64,000 bases of DNA from Candidatus Nanoarchaeia archaeon (GCA_028279685.1 JANQNG010000002.1:76144-140143); one strand, 5' to 3'; positions 1,282 through 61,722 are shown, counted from the first letter of the stretch. Translations and numbers: made by a program. The notes: generated by a model not told the origin, from the sequence alone.

Positions 1282-1431
1282 AACTCGTTCTTCTGTTGGA
1301 TGGTAGATGTATTCTTGGATTATGTTATCATTGGTTGCATTTCTAATAGTGCTTAATTGGTTTAGTGAATTATATTCGCGATAAAAGTCTTCATCAGAGT
1401 TACGAAGTAGGTTTCCGTTTGCAACAAGAAA

Positions 1432-4016: not shown

Positions 4017-5681
4017 TTACACATTAAAAGGCAATGCTGTCAATCCATCTTCGTGGTATTTTTTCATTACATCCCAAACATCAAAATAATCAAAAATCTT
4101 ATGTTCGACCATCCTCTGCAGGATCTTTGTCCTGAGATCAAGCTCCTTATATATATCACGAGTGTCTTCAAATCCAAGAATAGTAGCTATTTTCTTCTCG
4201 AGAATATAACTATTGAATAATCCTCTGAAAATATGTTTATCAGAAACAGGATCCCAATTAAATACTTCTCTCGTAATCACTTTATTGGCAACATCATAAT
4301 AACGCTCAATTTCAGTGATTGATAACACTCTTCTTACCATATGTCCTCCTCGAGAAACAGCTTGCTGAATCAACACAATATTGAGATTATCTATTGATGC
4401 AATAGGCACATCAATAGGATGCGACGTAATACGTTGTATCATACTATGAGGACTACCTGCGTGAAACGTACTCATCACAGGGTGACCTGTCTGCATAGCT
4501 TGGAATGCAACATTACCTTCTTCACCTCGTATCTCTCCTACAATAATATAATTTGGACGACTACGCAAAGCAGCAATCAACAGATCAAAAATTGTGACAT
4601 CAGAATCTTTCCCTGATTCTCTTGTGACAAGATGCTGCCACGTTGCATGAGGAATTGTAACCTCAGGAACATTCTCTACCGTGTATACTTTATCATCAGG
4701 TTTTATAAAACAGCACATCGCATTCAATGATGTTGTCTTTCCTGAAGCTGTTTCTCCACAAACAAACGTATTCATACCATTTTCTAAAGCCAACCACATA
4801 TATGCAGCAACGCGTGCACTCATCGTTCCCCAATTGATAATTTGTGTTATACTCACTGGCACTTCTGAGAATTTACGAATGGTGAAGCTGGAACCTTCGA
4901 GCGATAGCTCTCGCGAATAAATATAGTTTACACGAGAACCGTCAGGCATAATTGCGTCTACAACAGAATGTGCATCACTTACTGGACGCTCCACGCGCTC
5001 AGAGCTTTCAATAACATATTTGTCTAATTCAAAATCATCTTTGAAGTCGATATTGGTGTAAACCATATCGAAAATCTTATGGATCACTTTCATAGCACCA
5101 ACACCAGTACAATGCAGATCTTCAAGATAAGGATCATAGAAAAGCGGTTCAAGTTTTGCATAACCTACTCTATTCCTGATAATGAAGTACTTCAATGAAT
5201 CATACGTGTAAGGATCTAAAACAAGTTTTTTTGATCCTAATGCCTTGCTCTTCGGAATAACAACTTTTGCCCCCTCCTTTATCTCAACGACATCATTCAT
5301 GATTTTCAGAATAACAGGTTCAGCATCCTCAACTTTGTCAGGCACAGGATACCTATGTGCATATTCAACCATTTTGTTTGTTACGAGTTCGTAAAGCGTT
5401 CTCATCCGATCATCTAAGGCAGGCTCTACAACAGTATAAGTAATATGCATCCCTGGCTGCCTGAGAATATGCACAAACAATGGATCCCCTATAGGATAAA
5501 TAAGATTTACTTTTTTCTTTCTCATACCTTTATCGAGTTTAAGATGCCATTCTGGATCACCATATTTCTCAACAATCTTCTCAACATACTTAGAAAGATG
5601 CGGATAGTTATCCTGCGCATCGAGGAAATTCTCTGTTTTTGGTGCATGTCTTCTTTTTGCCATCTTAGCTGAAACTTGCAA
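4017..5681 (-). CDS. flaI: archaellum ATPase FlaI/ArlI (type II/IV secretion ATPase family)
   Basis: 554 aa; Walker A GETASGKTT; conserved FlaI-like regions; located after flaH. Confidence 0.9.
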   Translation of the reverse strand: MQVSAKMAKRRHAPKTENFLDAQDNYPHLSKYVEKIVEKYGDPEWHLKLDKGMRKKKVNLIYPIGDPLFVHILRQPGMHITYTVVEPALDDRMRTLYELVTNKMVEYAHRYPVPDKVEDAEPVILKIMNDVVEIKEGAKVVIPKSKALGSKKLVLDPYTYDSLKYFIIRNRVGYAKLEPLFYDPYLEDLHCTGVGAMKVIHKIFDMVYTNIDFKDDFELDKYVIESSERVERPVSDAHSVVDAIMPDGSRVNYIYSRELSLEGSSFTIRKFSEVPVSITQIINWGTMSARVAAYMWLALENGMNTFVCGETASGKTTSLNAMCCFIKPDDKVYTVENVPEVTIPHATWQHLVTRESGKDSDVTIFDLLIAALRSRPNYIIVGEIRGEEGNVAFQAMQTGHPVMSTFHAGSPHSMIQRITSHPIDVPIASIDNLNIVLIQQAVSRGGHMVRRVLSITEIERYYDVANKVITREVFNWDPVSDKHIFRGLFNSYILEKKIATILGFEDTRDIYKELDLRTKILQRMVEHKIFDYFDVWDVMKKYHEDGLTALPFNV

Positions 5682-6366
5682 TCTCTATAGCAAGTCCTTT
5701 ACCTGCCTCTACCTTATAAGGTATAGCGCTCAATACATTTGATCCACTTCTCTTAAATCGTTTAACCTTCATTACTCTGACAATCTCTCCTGCAAAACTA
5801 CTGATCTCCAATTCAAGAATCACATCACTAACATTCTTCACCAATGTCAATAATTTTGGATGAATGTGATCTTGATCAATATCAATAATCACCGTTTTTC
5901 CGAGTGAAGTAAGTCTTTTTAGGAAATAGATGAATTGAAATAATTCACGTTCCGTGGTATCATCTTGAACAATCAAGAAGCTTATTGTATCGAGAATTAT
6001 CACATCTTTGCTGTAGAGCCTAGAAGAATTCATCAATCTTTGGAGCATACCTCTTTGCAGCCTTGACTTTCCATAAAAAGGAAACATGGGAACAAACATC
6101 AAATCATCATCAAGCAAATAATACTTACAATCATAATCAAGGCTTGCCATCTGTTCAATAAATCCGACAGTATCAAGTTCAGAGCTAATATATGATGCAG
6201 TGTATCCTGCCTGCAATAATCCATAGCACATTCTTTGAGAGATAATGCTTTTTCCTGAGCCATCTTGTCCTGTAATAAGAATCAACGCATCTTTAGGTAT
6301 ACCTCCTCCTATGTTTCTGTTCAGTTCATCCCTTTCAAGGTCTATGGAAAGTACTTCTGATTTCAT
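5665..6366 (-). CDS. flaH: archaellum protein FlaH/ArlH (RecA/KaiC-like ATPase)
   Basis: 233 aa; Walker A GQDGSGKS; overlaps flaI start as is typical of archaellum operons. Confidence 0.85.
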   Translation of the reverse strand: MKSEVLSIDLERDELNRNIGGGIPKDALILITGQDGSGKSIISQRMCYGLLQAGYTASYISSELDTVGFIEQMASLDYDCKYYLLDDDLMFVPMFPFYGKSRLQRGMLQRLMNSSRLYSKDVIILDTISFLIVQDDTTERELFQFIYFLKRLTSLGKTVIIDIDQDHIHPKLLTLVKNVSDVILELEISSFAGEIVRVMKVKRFKRSGSNVLSAIPYKVEAGKGLAIEIASFS

Positions 6367-14469: not shown

Positions 14470-14580
14470 AGCCCTGTAGTGTAGTGGCCAATCATTCTAG
14501 CCTTTGGAGCCGGAGCGAAGCTAGGCGGCTTTGCTTCGCAAAGACAGCTGGAGACCGCGGTTCGAATCCGCGCGGGGCTA
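14470..14580 (+). tRNA. tRNA-Gln (anticodon TTG) with a 38-nt intron at canonical position 37/38
   Basis: Hand fold: acceptor AGCCCTG/CGGGGCT, D arm GTGTAGTGGCCAATCAT, anticodon stem CTAGC/GCTGG, loop CTTTGG|intron|A, T arm CGCGG-TTCGAAT-CCGCG, discriminator A; A1-U72 and a GGGCUA 3' end fit my recollection of archaeal tRNA-Gln. Confidence 0.7.
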
Positions 14581-14697
14581 TTCTAAACCATAGGTTGAGA
14601 AATCCCCAAAGGGATTCGAACCTGCGGTTCGTGCACAAAGTCTACAACTTTGTGTGCTCGGAAAGCTACACTTTCCTCCGCAATCCGCGCAGGGCTA
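14581..14697 (+). other. tRNA-linked structured element B1: antisense T-loop segment, three hairpins, ends with a near-exact direct repeat of the tRNA-Gln 3' end
   Basis: Begins with GGGATTCGAACC; hairpins CGAACC-TGC-GGTTCG, CACAAAGT-CTACA-ACTTTGTG, GGAAAG-CTACA-CTTTCC; ends AATCCGCGCAGGGCTA vs tRNA end AATCCGCGCGGGGCTA. Confidence 0.3.
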
Positions 14698-14743
14698 CTT
14701 TTCTGTAAAAAAGTTAAAGAGACTACAGTTCGTGCTCAGAATT

Positions 14744-14995
14744 CTATTCTTTTTTCTTGACAGGATCATAGCCTCCTTTGTTAAAAGGATTACACCGCAT
14801 TATCCTGTTGAAGCCCATCACACTTCCTTTGATCAAGCCATATTCTTCTATTGCTTGTAACGTATATTCAGAACAAGAAGGTTCAAATTTGCACATATGA
14901 ATGCCTAAAAAATTATAAACAGGATAGGTGGCTTTCCTGTATGCTTTGATACATCCGACACCTACCCTTCTTGGTAAAGTATTTTCAAGAGACAT
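14744..14995 (-). CDS. yidD: YidD-family membrane protein insertion efficiency factor (DUF37)
   Basis: 83 aa; [20 protein letters not shown]...[16 protein letters not shown] matches the YidD signature CxFxPSCSxY...R(I/L)xRC(H/N)PF..GGxDPV. Confidence 0.8.
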
Positions 14996-15786: not shown

Positions 15787-15888
15787 AGTCCCGTAGTGTA
15801 GTGGCCAATTCACGAGAGGCTAGTCATCTCGGACTCTGGTAACATTTGGAGATATCCGAGGACCGCGGTTCGAATCCGCGCGGGACTA
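15787..15888 (+). tRNA. tRNA-Gln (anticodon CTG) with two introns: ~15 nt in the D arm and 14 nt at 37/38
   Basis: Acceptor AGTCCCG/CGGGACT, T arm CGCGG-TTCGAAT-CCGCG, anticodon stem TCGGA/TCCGA, loop CTCTGG|TAACATTTGGAGAT|A; relative to the TTG gene, an extra TTCACGAGAGGCTAG lies between GGCCAA and TCAT of the D arm; length 102 = 73 + 29. Confidence 0.6.
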
Positions 15889-16008
15889 TTCTAAACTCAA
15901 AGCTAGAATGTCCCATAAAGAATTCGAACCTGCGGTTCGTGCTCAGAAATTGTAAATTTCTGGCACCCCAAAGCTGCAAAGCAGTTTTGATGGAACCTCG
16001 CGAGGCTA
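15889..16008 (+). other. tRNA-linked structured element B2 (degenerate copy of B1 architecture)
   Basis: Shares TTCTAAAC and ATTCGAACCTGCGGTTCGTGC with B1; hairpins AGAAATT-GTA-AATTTCT and CAAAGCTGC-AAA-GCAGTTTTG (stems differ from B1 but pair); ends CGCGAGGCTA. Confidence 0.25.
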
Positions 16009-19675: not shown

Positions 19676-20010
19676 AAAAATTCATAAGACTCTGTAGAAA
19701 TGCTATTTAGCACATTGCTGACAATACTGCCTAGCGCAACTATCATATTGCTTATCTGAGGAATATAATCGAATTACGCAATGATCTGCATTAAAAAGTG
19801 AAGCGCAGTATTGTCAGCCTGTATGTTATACACTACTGCGCTTCGTGTACTATGTGCAATCAAAGAAGCAAATCGATTATAGCAAATAAATACACCACCA
19901 GAGTACTCCGCTAGGCAGTAGTGTATAACAAATAATAGTATGTCTTTAAAGCATTTCCACAGAGCCAAATCATAAGAAAATTATATAAACTCTTCATTCT
20001 TGTCTGCGCT

Positions 20011-57328: not shown

Positions 57329-57532
57329 TTATTTGTTAAATTCTGTATAACCGCATTTACCGCAGTGCACGCGATCTTTATGCTGTGCCATCGTGACTCC
57401 TTTGCCACATTTTGGGCAGTCACGATTTTTCTTCTTTCCATTCTCAAAGACTTTGCCTAATTGATTAGCATGAGAAACTGATTTTTTTCTTTCCTTTTTG
57501 TCGCCGCCTTTACCGCCTTTTTTATTTCCCAT
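57329..57532 (-). CDS. rps27ae: 30S ribosomal protein S27ae (eS31)
   Basis: [30 protein letters not shown]4 zinc ribbon typical of S27ae. Confidence 0.75.
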
Positions 57533-57538
57533 CGATCA

Positions 57539-57985
57539 TCACTCCTTCTTTTCTTCTTTGGCTTCTTTTTTCTCTTCAGCAGGTTTTTCTTCTGCTTGAG
57601 GTTCTTCTTTCTTTTCTTCGACAGGCTTCTCTTCAGCAGGAGCTTCCTCTTTCTTTTCAGCCATTTCTTCTTTTTTCTCTTCAGCAGGAGCCTCTTCTTT
57701 TTTCTTTTTCTCTTCAAAATTCTTTTTCAAAGAACTTTTCTTCTCTAATGTCTTCATTGCTTTCTCATCATCATAGACGTATGCAAGAAATGAAGCATCT
57801 AATCCACCAAACTTCGGCTTAATCTTCCTGACTACAAGAAGTTCTTTCTTCGCTTTGATTTTCTTTGAAAGTTCATCTCTGAATTCCTGAACAGAAGGTG
57901 TTTTTCCTTCAAAAGTAACATAGCCACGAACTTCCTTTCTTGAGAGCAAAGGCACCCCATACTCATAATCCACTCTTACTTCCAT
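57539..57985 (-). CDS. rps24e: 30S ribosomal protein S24e with K/E-rich C-terminal extension
   Basis: LLSRKEVRGYVTFEGKTPSVQEFRDELSKK...FGGLDASFLAYVYD S24e core. Confidence 0.8.
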   Translation of the reverse strand: MEVRVDYEYGVPLLSRKEVRGYVTFEGKTPSVQEFRDELSKKIKAKKELLVVRKIKPKFGGLDASFLAYVYDDEKAMKTLEKKSSLKKNFEEKKKKEEAPAEEKKEEMAEKKEEAPAEEKPVEEKKEEPQAEEKPAEEKKEAKEEKKE

Positions 57986-59251: not shown

Positions 59252-59322
59252 GCGCACGTGGCCAAGTAGTAAGGCAAGAGGCTGCAACCCTCTGATCCCC
59301 GGTGCAAATCCGGGCGTGCGCT
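59252..59322 (+). tRNA. tRNA-Cys (anticodon GCA), no intron
   Basis: Acceptor GCGCACG/CGTGCGC, anticodon stem AGAGG/CCTCT with loop CTGCAAC, T arm CCCGG-TGCAAAT-CCGGG, discriminator U. Confidence 0.8.
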
Positions 59323-59417
59323 TAAGAAGGGATTTGCACCTCCGGTGCATGCTCAAAAATCAAAGATTTTTGGCAACTCGGAAAACTACGTTTTCCTCCG
59401 TAATCCGGGCGTGCGCT
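59323..59417 (+). other. tRNA-linked structured element B3: antisense tRNA-Cys T-loop, hairpins, direct repeat of the tRNA-Cys 3' end
   Basis: GGGATTTGCACC is the reverse complement of the Cys T-loop region; hairpins GCACC-TCC-GGTGC, CAAAAAT-CAAAG-ATTTTTG, GGAAAAC-TAC-GTTTTCC; ends TAATCCGGGCGTGCGCTTA vs tRNA end AAATCCGGGCGTGCGCTTA. Confidence 0.3.
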
Positions 59418-59438
59418 TAACAAAAAAAAGGTGTCACT

Positions 59439-60302
59439 ATGCCATACCTCAAAAACGGAAAACACAAAGTGTACTACGAGATTCATAGAGATTCTCCTAT
59501 GCTCGTTTTTCTCCATGGAGCAACCATGAATCATACATTACTAGGGCATCAAATTAAATACGCCCAAAAATTAGGATACGGTACCCTTGCTATTGACTTA
59601 CGAGGCGCTGGTAAATCTACTTATTCAAAAGATAAATCATTTTATGATGTTGAAAACTACGTTGAAGATATCACAAAAATTCTCAAAAAAGAAAAAATAA
59701 GAAAAATAATTCCTGTGGGATTTTCGCACGGAGGTATGGTTGCACAAGCCTTTGCAGCAATGTATCCTAAAAAGACACAAGGCCTTATTCTTATCGCGAC
59801 AACCTACAATATTAACGAAACATTTTGCAATACGCTTCCAAAAAAATTATTTTTTCATGGCAGTACTGCCATAAAGAAATTAATGTTAATTTATAATCAG
59901 TTCGTATCACTATTCCACCCTCTAAAAGATAACCCTCCAAACTACACTAGTGAAAAATATAAGCATATGAATACTGCTCAATTTGTTATTGATCATTATC
60001 TCACAAGAAGTGCTGACAGAATTAAAGCAGAGCTGCAATTTAGCAGCAACATCAGATTTCAAGACATAAAAGAGCATACTAAAAAAATACGATGCCCAAC
60101 AATAATTATTCAAGGGAAAAACGATATAAGCATTACTCCTGATGTTGCTGAAGCATTGCACACTATGATTCCTTCAAGCAGCAAACCGATCTATATTGAA
60201 CAAGGAGATCATGGCATGGCATTTAATCTTCCAAATGAAGTGAATAACATATTAAAAAAAGGATTGGATTATATTTATAACCATAAAACATTAAAAGCAT
60301 GA
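59439..60302 (+). CDS. alpha/beta-fold hydrolase
   Basis: VFLHGATMNH...GFSHGGMVAQ nucleophile elbow. Confidence 0.6.
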   Translation: MPYLKNGKHKVYYEIHRDSPMLVFLHGATMNHTLLGHQIKYAQKLGYGTLAIDLRGAGKSTYSKDKSFYDVENYVEDITKILKKEKIRKIIPVGFSHGGMVAQAFAAMYPKKTQGLILIATTYNINETFCNTLPKKLFFHGSTAIKKLMLIYNQFVSLFHPLKDNPPNYTSEKYKHMNTAQFVIDHYLTRSADRIKAELQFSSNIRFQDIKEHTKKIRCPTIIIQGKNDISITPDVAEALHTMIPSSSKPIYIEQGDHGMAFNLPNEVNNILKKGLDYIYNHKTLKA

Positions 60303-60318
60303 AACAGAGGAATATACT

Positions 60319-61722
60319 ATGGACATCCAACTATTCAACACATTGACCAGAAAGAAAGAAGTATTTGCACCTATCAAGAAAGGTGAAGTGGGATTGTACT
60401 GCTGTGGACCTACTGTTTACAACTATGCTCATATAGGCAATCTGAGAGCATATCTCTTTGAAGACGTATTAGTACGAATGTTCAAATATAATCAATTCAA
60501 AATAACCCATGTGATGAATATCACTGATGTCGGGCATTTAACTTCTGATGCTGACGAAGGAGAAGATAAAATGCTCAAAGGAGCAAAAAGAGAAGGTAAA
60601 ACAGTCTATGAAATTGCTGATCATTACACGAAAGCATTTTTCAATGATACTGAACAACTGAACATTTTGCATCCAAATGTAACACCAAAAGCGACAGAGC
60701 ACATTAAGCAAATGATTGTATTAGTCAAACGATTAGAAGAGAATGGATTAACGTATGTTGCTGGAGGGAATGTTTATTTTGACACAAGCAAGTTCCCTAA
60801 GTATGGAGAACTTGCCAGATTAAAACTTGATGAACTAAAAGAAGGTGCTCGTGTTGATAAAGACCCCAACAAAAAAAATCCTACTGACTTTGTATTATGG
60901 TTTACCAAATCAAAGTTTACCGATCAAGAAATGAAATGGGATTCTCCTTGGGGAACAGGCTATCCTGGTTGGCATATTGAATGTAGTGCAATGAGTATGG
61001 AGTATTTAGGAGAGCAATTCGATATCCACTGTGGAGGTATTGATCATATTCCTGTACACCATACTAATGAGATTGCACAATCAGAAGGTGCCACTGGTAA
61101 AAAATGGGTCAATATATGGATGCATAACGAATTTCTTGTAGATGAGAAAGGAAAAATGGCTAAATCTGCAGGAGCATTTCTCACACTATCTGTACTGAAA
61201 GAGAAGGGTTATGATCCTTTAGTATATAGATACTTTACTTTGGGAACATCATATAGAAAACCTTTGATGTTAAGCTACGATGCACTAGATGGTGCAAAGA
61301 ATGCATTCGAGAACTTGAAAAAAAAGATCATTGAATTACAAAAAGAATCTTCAGAAGCGAAGAAAGGAAGTGAGAAAAAGTTTGAACAATACAGCAAAGA
61401 TTTTCTTGCAGCAATCAATGATGATCTGAATACTCCAAAAGCTCTTGCATTATTATGGGATGTGTTAAAAGATAATGAATTAAAATCAGAAACAAAGTAT
61501 TACTTAGTGTTAGATTTCGATCGTGTTTTGGGCTTTGGATTAGATAAAGTTAAAGAAGAAAAAATAGATATTCCTGATGAGATAAAAGCTATTGCTGAAA
61601 AGAGGTCAGAAGCAAGAAAGAAGAAAGATTGGGGTGCTTCTGACCAGTTACGAGATGAGTTAAGGAAAAAAGGATGGGTTATTGAGGATACGAAAGAAGG
61701 GTATGAATTGAAGAAAGGATAA
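60319..61722 (+). CDS. cysS: cysteinyl-tRNA synthetase
   Basis: HIGN (HIGH-type) motif in YNYAHIGNLRAY; KMSKS-type KMAKSAG; CysRS-like zinc-binding Cys pattern. Confidence 0.9.
   Translation: MDIQLFNTLTRKKEVFAPIKKGEVGLYCCGPTVYNYAHIGNLRAYLFEDVLVRMFKYNQFKITHVMNITDVGHLTSDADEGEDKMLKGAKREGKTVYEIADHYTKAFFNDTEQLNILHPNVTPKATEHIKQMIVLVKRLEENGLTYVAGGNVYFDTSKFPKYGELARLKLDELKEGARVDKDPNKKNPTDFVLWFTKSKFTDQEMKWDSPWGTGYPGWHIECSAMSMEYLGEQFDIHCGGIDHIPVHHTNEIAQSEGATGKKWVNIWMHNEFLVDEKGKMAKSAGAFLTLSVLKEKGYDPLVYRYFTLGTSYRKPLMLSYDALDGAKNAFENLKKKIIELQKESSEAKKGSEKKFEQYSKDFLAAINDDLNTPKALALLWDVLKDNELKSETKYYLVLDFDRVLGFGLDKVKEEKIDIPDEIKAIAEKRSEARKKKDWGASDQLRDELRKKGWVIEDTKEGYELKKG

Follow-up and report, generated by a model that had tools for sequence, protein, structure and literature searches.

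A structured, tRNA-derived element behind tRNA genes of a Nanoarchaeia archaeon has the layout of the Escherichia coli rtT repeat

We analysed a stretch of 64,000 nucleotides (nt) from Candidatus Nanoarchaeia archaeon (GCA_028279685.1, JANQNG010000002.1:76144-140143), hereafter the window, in which the gene for tRNA-Gln(UUG) is followed by a structured element, element B, that ends in a copy of the 3' end of that tRNA. In our best reading, element B is a non-coding module that originated from tRNA sequence and is joined to a tRNA gene at its 3' end. We give a probability of about 0.5 to the fuller proposal that it is an archaeal unit of the RtT type known from E. coli, that is, a co-transcribed structured tRNA trailer that spreads by recombination through the T-loop.

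Results

Anatomy of element B

Behind tRNA-Gln(UUG), a spacer leads to an antisense copy of part of the T-arm (X'), which is followed by a sense copy of positions 49/50-57 in the 5' part of the same arm, an insert that folds into two hairpins and a direct repeat of the tRNA 3' end. The features are listed below in window coordinates.

14470..14580, + strand: tRNA-Gln(UUG) (Rfam tRNA model, 45.1 bits; ARAGORN with introns, anticodon ttg, i(39,38))
14508-14545, + strand: canonical 38-nt intron of tRNA-Gln(UUG) at position 37/38, with a perfect bulge-helix-bulge
14581..14610, + strand: 30-nt spacer between tRNA-Gln(UUG) and X', from reading the sequence
14611..14622, + strand: X', GGGATTCGAACC, antisense of T-arm positions 52-62, containing the exact 11-nt reverse complement of GGTTCGAATCC
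14623..14631, + strand: TGC triloop and GGTTCG, the sense copy of positions 52-57, which pairs with the 3' half of X' (helix P2)
14632..14681, + strand: 50-nt insert with two hairpins, ending in CTTTCCTCCGC, from folds
14631-14657 and 14660-14676, + strand: hairpins H1 and H2 of the insert, each with a CTACA loop, from folds
14682..14697, + strand: direct repeat of tRNA positions 58-73, AATCCGCGCAGGGCTA, 15/16 identical to the tRNA at 14565-14580
14698..14704, + strand: oligo-T tract CTTTTCT directly 3' of element B, a putative archaeal terminator

The first-pass annotation of this DNA had described a structured element that follows tRNA-Gln(UUG) and copies the tRNA 3' end, with an antisense copy of the T-loop region followed by TGCGG-TTCG; the sequence is as described, from the exact X' and the TGC-GGTTCG to the 15 matching bases of the repeat. 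The two hairpins with CTACA loops were likewise recovered, but the insert measures 50 nt and not about 49.

By a simple base-frequency estimate, the chance of the 16-mer repeat within 200 nt of a given tRNA end is ~2e-6, and that of the 11-mer antisense match ~5e-5. Moreover, element B folds better than its shuffles, with z = -3.6 for this copy and z = -3.2 for the copy behind tRNA-Cys described below. The first 5 nt of the direct repeat pair with the 5' half of X' (helix P1), and the remainder of the repeat forms a single-stranded tail. The spacer is homologous to that behind tRNA-Gln(CUG), both starting with TTCTAAAC, and contains CCCC, the complement of GGGG in the acceptor 3' strand. No oligo-T tract comparable to the one behind element B was found after the 3' end of tRNA-Gln(UUG) itself, and at both tRNA-Gln loci of the window the tract follows the element, not the tRNA.

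Two further copies in the window

The same arrangement had been claimed for tRNA-Gln(CUG) and tRNA-Cys, and the parts of these two copies are as follows.

15787..15888, + strand: tRNA-Gln(CUG) with two introns (sequence parse; ARAGORN with introns)
15889..16008, + strand: decayed element behind tRNA-Gln(CUG) (covariance model R1 match at 15919-16008, 81.6 bits)
15920-15930, + strand: X' of this copy, GAATTCGAACC, 10/11
15931-15939, + strand: triloop and sense copy
15940-15993, + strand: two-hairpin insert
15994-16008, + strand: degenerate 3' copy, ~11/16, with TTTTCCC next
59252..59322, + strand: tRNA-Cys(GCA), intron-free (ARAGORN; Rfam 59.7 bits)
59323..59423, + strand: element behind tRNA-Cys, beginning with a 6-nt spacer (covariance model, 86.1 bits; repeat family D8)
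59329-59340, + strand: X' of this copy, GGGATTTGCACC, antisense of the Cys T-loop
59341-59349, + strand: TCC and GGTGCA, the sense piece
59350-59401, + strand: insert
59402-59423, + strand: direct repeat, 21/22 identical, extending 6 nt beyond the tRNA end

A covariance model of the core returned exactly these three copies within the window and no others, in agreement with the earlier count of three. Three tRNAs were found in the window, and all three therefore carry the element, in each case as a single unit with no tandem repetition. The claimed recurrence stands cleanly for tRNA-Cys, where X' and the sense piece both track the differing Cys T-loop; the copy behind tRNA-Gln(CUG) is decayed and lacks the TTTTCCTCCG end. 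The acceptor and T-arm of the window tRNA-Gln(CUG) match those of tRNA-Gln(CUG) at the metagenomic locus L029 (see below). This tRNA appears to have two short introns, one before the anticodon stem and one at position 37/38; it was missed by default ARAGORN and by the Rfam tRNA model, and ARAGORN with introns miscalls it as tRNA-Pro(CGG).

An archaeal family of inserts with compensatory changes

A metagenome scan with ATTCGAACCNNNGGTTCGTGC gave 11 loci, just two of which (L022 and L029) are true elements; the other nine proved to be minus-strand tRNA genes or coding sequence. At L022 the element lies behind tRNA-Val, and the cysteinyl-tRNA synthetase (CysRS) is 58% identical to that of the window. 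At L029 it lies behind tRNA-Gln(UUG), with tRNA-Gln(CUG) ~700 nt downstream in the gene order seen in the window, and at a Methanosarcinales locus (L012) it lies behind tRNA-Pro. The window copies, L022, L029 and L012 have the beginning of the insert in common, in the form of hairpin H1, which is closed by UGC...GCA and reads UGCUCA(G/A)AAAU...AUUU(C/U)UGGCA in four of the six archaeal copies. One insert family is thereby seen behind tRNAs of four isotypes (Gln, Cys, Val and Pro), and the tRNA-derived flanks match the respective tRNA. The first-pass annotation had staked its interpretation on copies in relatives, and such copies were found in distant DPANN relatives (L022 and L029), in Methanosarcinales and in Pacearchaeota, with the layout occurring in bacteria as well.

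Minimum-free-energy folds of three archaeal copies show a four-way junction of P1, P2, H1 and H2. P1 joins the 5' half of X' to the start of the repeat (GGAUU:AAUCC), P2 joins the 3' half of X' to the sense piece and is closed by the triloop, and the acceptor 3' strand copy remains single-stranded as an 11-nt 3' tail. The fold is specific to the tRNA-sense strand because of its G-U pairs. Across the six archaeal copies, 92.9% of the cells assigned to helices are paired (90% in P1), versus 26-51% when the partners are slid. Two-sided changes affect nine pairs, of which seven belong to H1 and two to P2, and the two in P2 track the Cys T-loop. The family-like conservation noted earlier, with hairpin stems that differ in sequence while remaining paired, is borne out by these nine two-sided changes, which are supportive of selection on the hairpin structure.

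The layout in bacteria and other archaea

Genomes of GTDB were scanned with the pattern GGTTCGAATCC, 18-48 nt, ATTCGAACC, NNN and GGTTCG, which has 26 specified bases, a chance expectation of ~0.01 in the collection and no requirement for an insert or a 3' repeat. The scan returned 16 genome loci, every one of which lies at the 3' end of a tRNA gene. They cover eight isotypes (Glu, Ser, Gln, Tyr, Arg, Lys, Pro and Leu) and come from Acidobacteriota, Verrucomicrobiota, Clostridia, Gammaproteobacteria, Longimicrobiales, Thermoanaerobaculia and two archaeal metagenome-assembled genomes, one of Pacearchaeota and one of Methanosarcinales; Gemmatimonadota-like bacteria are among the hosts. A repeat of the tRNA 3' end, starting from tRNA positions 58-62, follows 96-154 nt downstream at 13 of the 16 loci. 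The array stops directly behind the 3' repeat, within a few bases of the tRNA 3' end, at 12 loci, and the other four end in a truncated unit. Two to three tandem units are present at many bacterial loci and at the archaeal locus L014, and the tandem bacterial units differ by changes that keep the hairpins.

At two loci, L007 and L002, a sigma-70-like promoter lies upstream of the tRNA, and up to the next gene the tRNA strand has a single terminator-like site, located after the repeat. With the promoter before the tRNA and the terminator after the repeat, the unit therefore lies inside the tRNA transcription unit at both loci.

Other searches returned little. An exact-pattern scan of GTDB representative genomes for the conserved insert end, CTCGGAAANCTACNNTTTCCTCCG, gave no match, which places neither this genome nor its close relatives among the representatives, and a scan of viral contigs for the junction of the sense T-loop copy and H1 gave two matches, both of them chance matches in coding sequence. 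The window unit had no match in phage or plasmid collections, and Rfam at permissive thresholds, on the window and nine of the bacterial loci, returned neither RtT nor anything else convincing. In the literature, we found the layout described nowhere outside E. coli rtT.

Two observations concern particular loci. At L016, 7862-8000 (- strand), a sub-threshold Rfam match to the Xanthomonas small RNA (sRNA) sX4 (RF02223; 27 bits, E = 0.08) spans the tRNA and the unit; a published study likewise reports sX4 matches on tRNA sequences, and sX4 may be another annotated instance of the layout. Additionally, L001 (labelled Acidobacteriota), L003 and L005 (labelled Verrucomicrobiae) have nearly identical tRNA-Glu genes, upstream flanks and units, which points to mis-binning or recent transfer; they carry 1.5, 2 and 3 units, respectively, and the copy number is thus dynamic.

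Relation to the RtT units of E. coli

The 178-bp repeats of the E. coli tRNA-Tyr genes tyrT and tyrV, with the rtT RNA (rttR), have reportedly been on record since 1978 (Egan and Landy in 1978, Boesl and Kersten in 1991), their origin and function unexplained. The rtT RNA is a processed product of the tyrT transcript with an unclear function, and published accounts agree on this.

The E. coli tyrT-tyrV unit has, in order, GGGGAAGG(G/A)TGAGAA(C/G)CTTCGAC, which is antisense of tRNA-Tyr positions 46-68 (19/23), the sense piece AAGGTTCGA, an insert of ~65 nt and AATCCTTCCCCCACCACCA, a copy of positions 58-76. Rfam identifies the four E. coli tyrT-tyrV units as RtT (RF00391) at 133-138 bits, and the outer helix of the RtT consensus pairs the antisense piece with the 3' copy. 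Among 5426 complete E. coli genomes, 4700 carry an RtT unit, in 1-9 copies and with the PGAP annotation 'RtT sRNA'; none of 50,697 phage records contains it, and among records labelled as plasmids only a few non-mobilizable ones do.

The Rfam RtT model found nothing in the window, either at its gathering score (45 bits) or at E <= 1. An exact 17-mer, GAGGAGCGAAGCGACGA, is common to one E. coli RtT unit and both units of Puniceicoccaceae (Verrucomicrobiota), and lies at 1385-1401 (- strand) of L017 and at 5644-5660 and 5749-5765 (- strand) of L015. This shared sequence hints at real homology of the bacterial units across phyla.

Genomic setting

The window is AT-rich (~36% G+C) and belongs to a contig of 144.8 kb. 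The best matches of its CysRS are proteins that carry the names Woesearchaeota or Nanoarchaeota, at only ~64% identity. The genes that flank the elements are housekeeping genes, encoding a Rad50-like protein, YidD, Rpb7, a PIN-domain protein, a hydrolase and CysRS. A search for contigs encoding the open reading frame (ORF) that adjoins tRNA-Gln gave no match.

The gene for YidD, a bacterial-type membrane-insertion factor, lies at 14744-14995 (- strand; PF01809, E = 1.8e-25); this yidD-type gene of a DPANN archaeon is thus directly downstream of the Gln(UUG) element and convergent with it. On the + strand at 59252-61722, tRNA-Cys and its element are followed by an alpha/beta hydrolase (59439-60302) and CysRS (60319-61722). 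No oligo-T tract was found from the Cys element to the first ORF, and tRNA-Cys and its synthetase may therefore share a transcript. In the same genome, ~6 kb beyond the cysS gene of the window, a Phage_integrase-family gene of 223 residues (L018, 7863-8534) could encode the host XerA or an integrase, with no established link to the tRNA elements.

Two other parts of the window are repetitive. The intergenic gap at 19717-19930 contains two perfect long-range inverted repeats, one of 14 bp (GCTGACAATACTGC / GCAGTATTGTCAGC, 74 nt apart) and one of 16 bp (TGTTATACACTACTGC / GCAGTAGTGTATAACA, 75 nt apart); its fold z-score is -3.8, Rfam has no match to it, and the gap may hold a structured RNA that is not annotated. 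At 57427-57716 (+ strand), low-complexity imperfect T/C-rich direct repeats with periods of 24-63 nt overlap an ORF at 57539-57985 (- strand) that probably codes for a repetitive charged protein segment.

Discussion

A proposed structured tRNA trailer of RtT type

Based on promoter and terminator positions and on the E. coli precedent, we propose that element B is co-transcribed with its tRNA as a 3' trailer. Processing at the true tRNA 3' end would then free element B as a stable by-product RNA, as reported for E. coli rtT; such release agrees with where the promoter, terminator and oligo-T tract lie. Before this cleavage, X' is predicted to pair with the T-arm of its own tRNA and the 5' acceptor strand with the distal repeat. 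Whole-transcript folds with X' on the tRNA's own T-arm are thermodynamically preferred for Gln(UUG) (-109.5 vs -87.0 kcal/mol), Cys (-65.3 vs -59.8 kcal/mol) and Gln(CUG) (-86.9 vs -74.8 kcal/mol), and the trailer may therefore delay or gate maturation of the tRNA.

At the DNA level, unequal recombination would multiply the units in tandem, and recombination via the conserved T-loop would carry them to further tRNA genes, whose sequence their tRNA-derived flanks would then match. The Gln, Val and Pro hosts do not differ at positions 52-62, so that X' would need almost no re-templating on moving; the Cys copy alone needed two paired changes. The archaeal repeats lack CCA and include genomic trailer bases; therefore, they were copied from DNA or from pre-tRNA, and a retro-copy of mature tRNA is ruled out.

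Several points weigh against this proposal. The covariation rests on six sequences in an alignment fitted to the model, which makes it supportive but not conclusive. The element is absent from all four tRNAs sampled in four related Woesearchaeota cysS loci, and at both L022 and L029 just one of the two tRNAs has it. No oligo-T tract follows the copy behind tRNA-Cys, and we infer co-transcription in this organism from the promoter and terminator positions and from E. coli. The RtT model matched neither the window nor the other bacterial units even at E <= 1-5, and the relation to RtT therefore rests on layout and not on demonstrated sequence homology. Finally, the sporadic distribution, the tandem arrays and the spread between loci form the pattern of a selfish element, which is a poor fit to a conserved host function.

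A possible mobile cassette

It is possible, though rather doubtful, that element B is instead a tiny non-autonomous DNA cassette that inserts at position 57/58 of the T-loops of tRNA genes. Such a cassette would act as folded single-stranded DNA, with X' and the two sense pieces rebuilding the duplex of the T-loop target and the insert branching at the crossover; a host tyrosine recombinase (Xer-like or an integrase) would act in trans, and arrays would arise from repeated insertion. The repeat always begins in the T-loop or in the T-stem 3' strand (positions 58-62), and the arrays that end by the tRNA 3' end (12/16 loci) correspond to the usual identity block of tRNA-targeting integrases, which runs from the T-loop to the tRNA 3' end according to Williams 2002, in the account given of that work in PMC9897764. 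However, a classical tyrosine-recombinase core site would need more than the 3 nt that separate the inverted arms. The tandem arrays of 2-3 units, the 1-9 copies in E. coli genomes, the sporadic distribution in both domains and the occurrence of the same insert family behind different tRNAs with matching flanks would all suit a mobile element, but neither a circular form nor an empty site has been demonstrated. Although a Phage_integrase-family gene lies ~6 kb beyond cysS in the same genome, no unit is linked to a recombinase. A mobilome-sequencing preprint reports raised tyrT-rttR coverage under stress, whereas the E. coli unit is missing from the phage records and nearly so from the plasmid-labelled ones, and the window unit has no phage or plasmid match. 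Structure is kept more than sequence, as in attC sites; the location inside tRNA transcription units, by contrast, is directly explained by a role as RNA.

In its strongest form, this alternative would make RtT-type units a bacterial and archaeal class of self-propagating cargo-less cassettes at T-loop position 57/58, inserted and excised as single-stranded DNA by a host tyrosine recombinase. We consider that generalization improbable; if it is true, E. coli rtT was the first-seen, never-understood example of a widespread tRNA-parasitic element.

Known classes of small transposon were also considered and rejected. A miniature transposon like IS200/IS605 or IS91 does not fit a cut site that varies (TTCG| vs TGCA|), inserts that are unrelated across taxa and the lack of a transposase. 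A miniature inverted-repeat transposable element or other insertion-sequence derivative does not fit an inverted repeat that is internal (X' versus the T-arm copy) and a duplication of 16-22 nt that is tRNA-specific.

An unlikely integration scar

That element B is an attL/attR scar, left when the body of an integrase-bearing virus or plasmid was deleted and ~100 nt of attP arms stayed behind, is very unlikely. In archaea and bacteria, integrated elements commonly give rise to partial tRNA copies (PMC9897764), and the repeat does span the T-loop to the tRNA end. However, the repeats are just 101 nt (Gln) or 79 nt (Cys) apart, with no gene remnants; no integrase or element gene and no ORF of note was found in these 79-101 nt, and the neighbours are housekeeping genes. 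A scar would decay, whereas these hairpins hold their pairing through compensatory changes, and the compact layout recurs at all 16 genome loci and in E. coli with an insert that splits the would-be crossover region. The first-pass annotation had likened element B, read as DNA, to an attL/attR-type duplication left by a tiny integrative element; this comparison is neither borne out nor refuted, with the repeat from T-loop to 3' end and the frequent tandem units in its favour, and the missing integrase and cargo, the compensatory hairpins and the lack of a phage or plasmid carrier against it.

An interrupted T-loop

Read as RNA, the same sequence had been taken for a T-arm with a T-loop intron, an orphan 3' half; the archaeal splicing endonuclease would then cut out the insert. 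We regard this as highly improbable, and equally so the use of the distal 3' copy as a spare 3' exon to which the 5' part of the tRNA would be joined, in the manner of split or multi-intron tRNAs. The organism does use bulge-helix-bulge introns, two of them in tRNA-Gln(CUG), the pair U6-G67 of the tRNA becomes a Watson-Crick U6-A67 with the distal copy, and in the fold of the whole transcript the 5' acceptor strand pairs with that copy. Nevertheless, a bulge-helix-bulge, coded as a 4-bp central helix with 3-nt bulges cut after the second base and flanking helices, is missing at the insert boundaries of all five archaeal copies examined: the central helix reaches 0-3/4 pairs and the outer helix 0-1/4, versus 4/4 and 4/4 in the genuine anticodon introns of tRNA-Gln(UUG) in the window and one relative. 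Moreover, the upstream tRNA is already complete, and bacteria, in which the splicing endonuclease is lacking, have the layout too. The intron reading, with the bulge-helix-bulge check proposed for it, thus fails.

Implications

The layout spans eight isotypes, several bacterial phyla and three archaeal groups, and an E. coli oddity thereby becomes a general feature of tRNA loci that is open to comparative study. It provides a search grammar for a census, together with an archaeal family whose hairpins covary, and it poses a clear alternative: either the unit is an RNA module by which maturation of the tRNA is gated, or it is a minimal mobile element and a parasite of tRNA genes. For annotation, orphan tRNA 3' pieces of this kind should not be taken as tRNA genes, introns or prophage boundaries.

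Comparison with known systems

Element B resembles the attC sites of integrons and the attP(+) site of CTX phage, in which a folded imperfect palindrome rebuilds the recombination target, structure prevails over sequence and arrays occur. It differs in having no associated integrase, no cargo genes and no demonstrated recombination, and the resemblance is in form only.

With the attL/attR partial tRNA duplications (Reiter 1989 and Williams 2002, in the account given of them in PMC9897764), it shares a direct repeat that starts within the T-loop and reaches the 3' end of the tRNA; the intact tRNA borders one side, and an orphan 3' fragment the opposite side. In contrast to these duplications, the repeats of element B are ~100 nt and not 9-23 kb apart, with no integrase or cargo, and the unit has an antisense T-arm copy, an insert that splits the second T-loop and a covarying structure.

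In the non-canonical introns and split tRNAs of archaea (Thermoproteales, Nanoarchaeum), too, the T-loop can be interrupted and a complementary leader can stand beside a 3' tRNA piece, and the host of the window itself uses bulge-helix-bulge introns. Element B, however, has no bulge-helix-bulge at the boundaries of its insert, is redundant with a complete tRNA and has a layout that is also bacterial.

The fourth comparison is with E. coli rtT, a system that the first-pass annotation did not name. The window insert is 50 nt long with two AU-rich hairpins, whereas that of E. coli is ~65 nt and GC-rich; the window units are single, whereas those of E. coli are tandem (3.14 copies); and the antisense piece covers positions 52-62 in the window and 46-68 in E. 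coli. The window host is an archaeon, and its repeat has no CCA because archaeal tRNA genes do not encode it. In both systems, the unit lies on the same strand directly 3' of a tRNA gene, inside a tRNA operon, and has the order antisense T-arm, sense piece of the 5' T-stem and T-loop, structured insert and copy from position 58. The window units likewise end in a copy of the 3' end of their own tRNA (15/16 and 21/22), and the closing helix of the antisense piece and the 3' copy in E. coli corresponds to P1 of the window, enclosing the hairpins. Taken together, these features make E. coli rtT the closest known relative of the window element.

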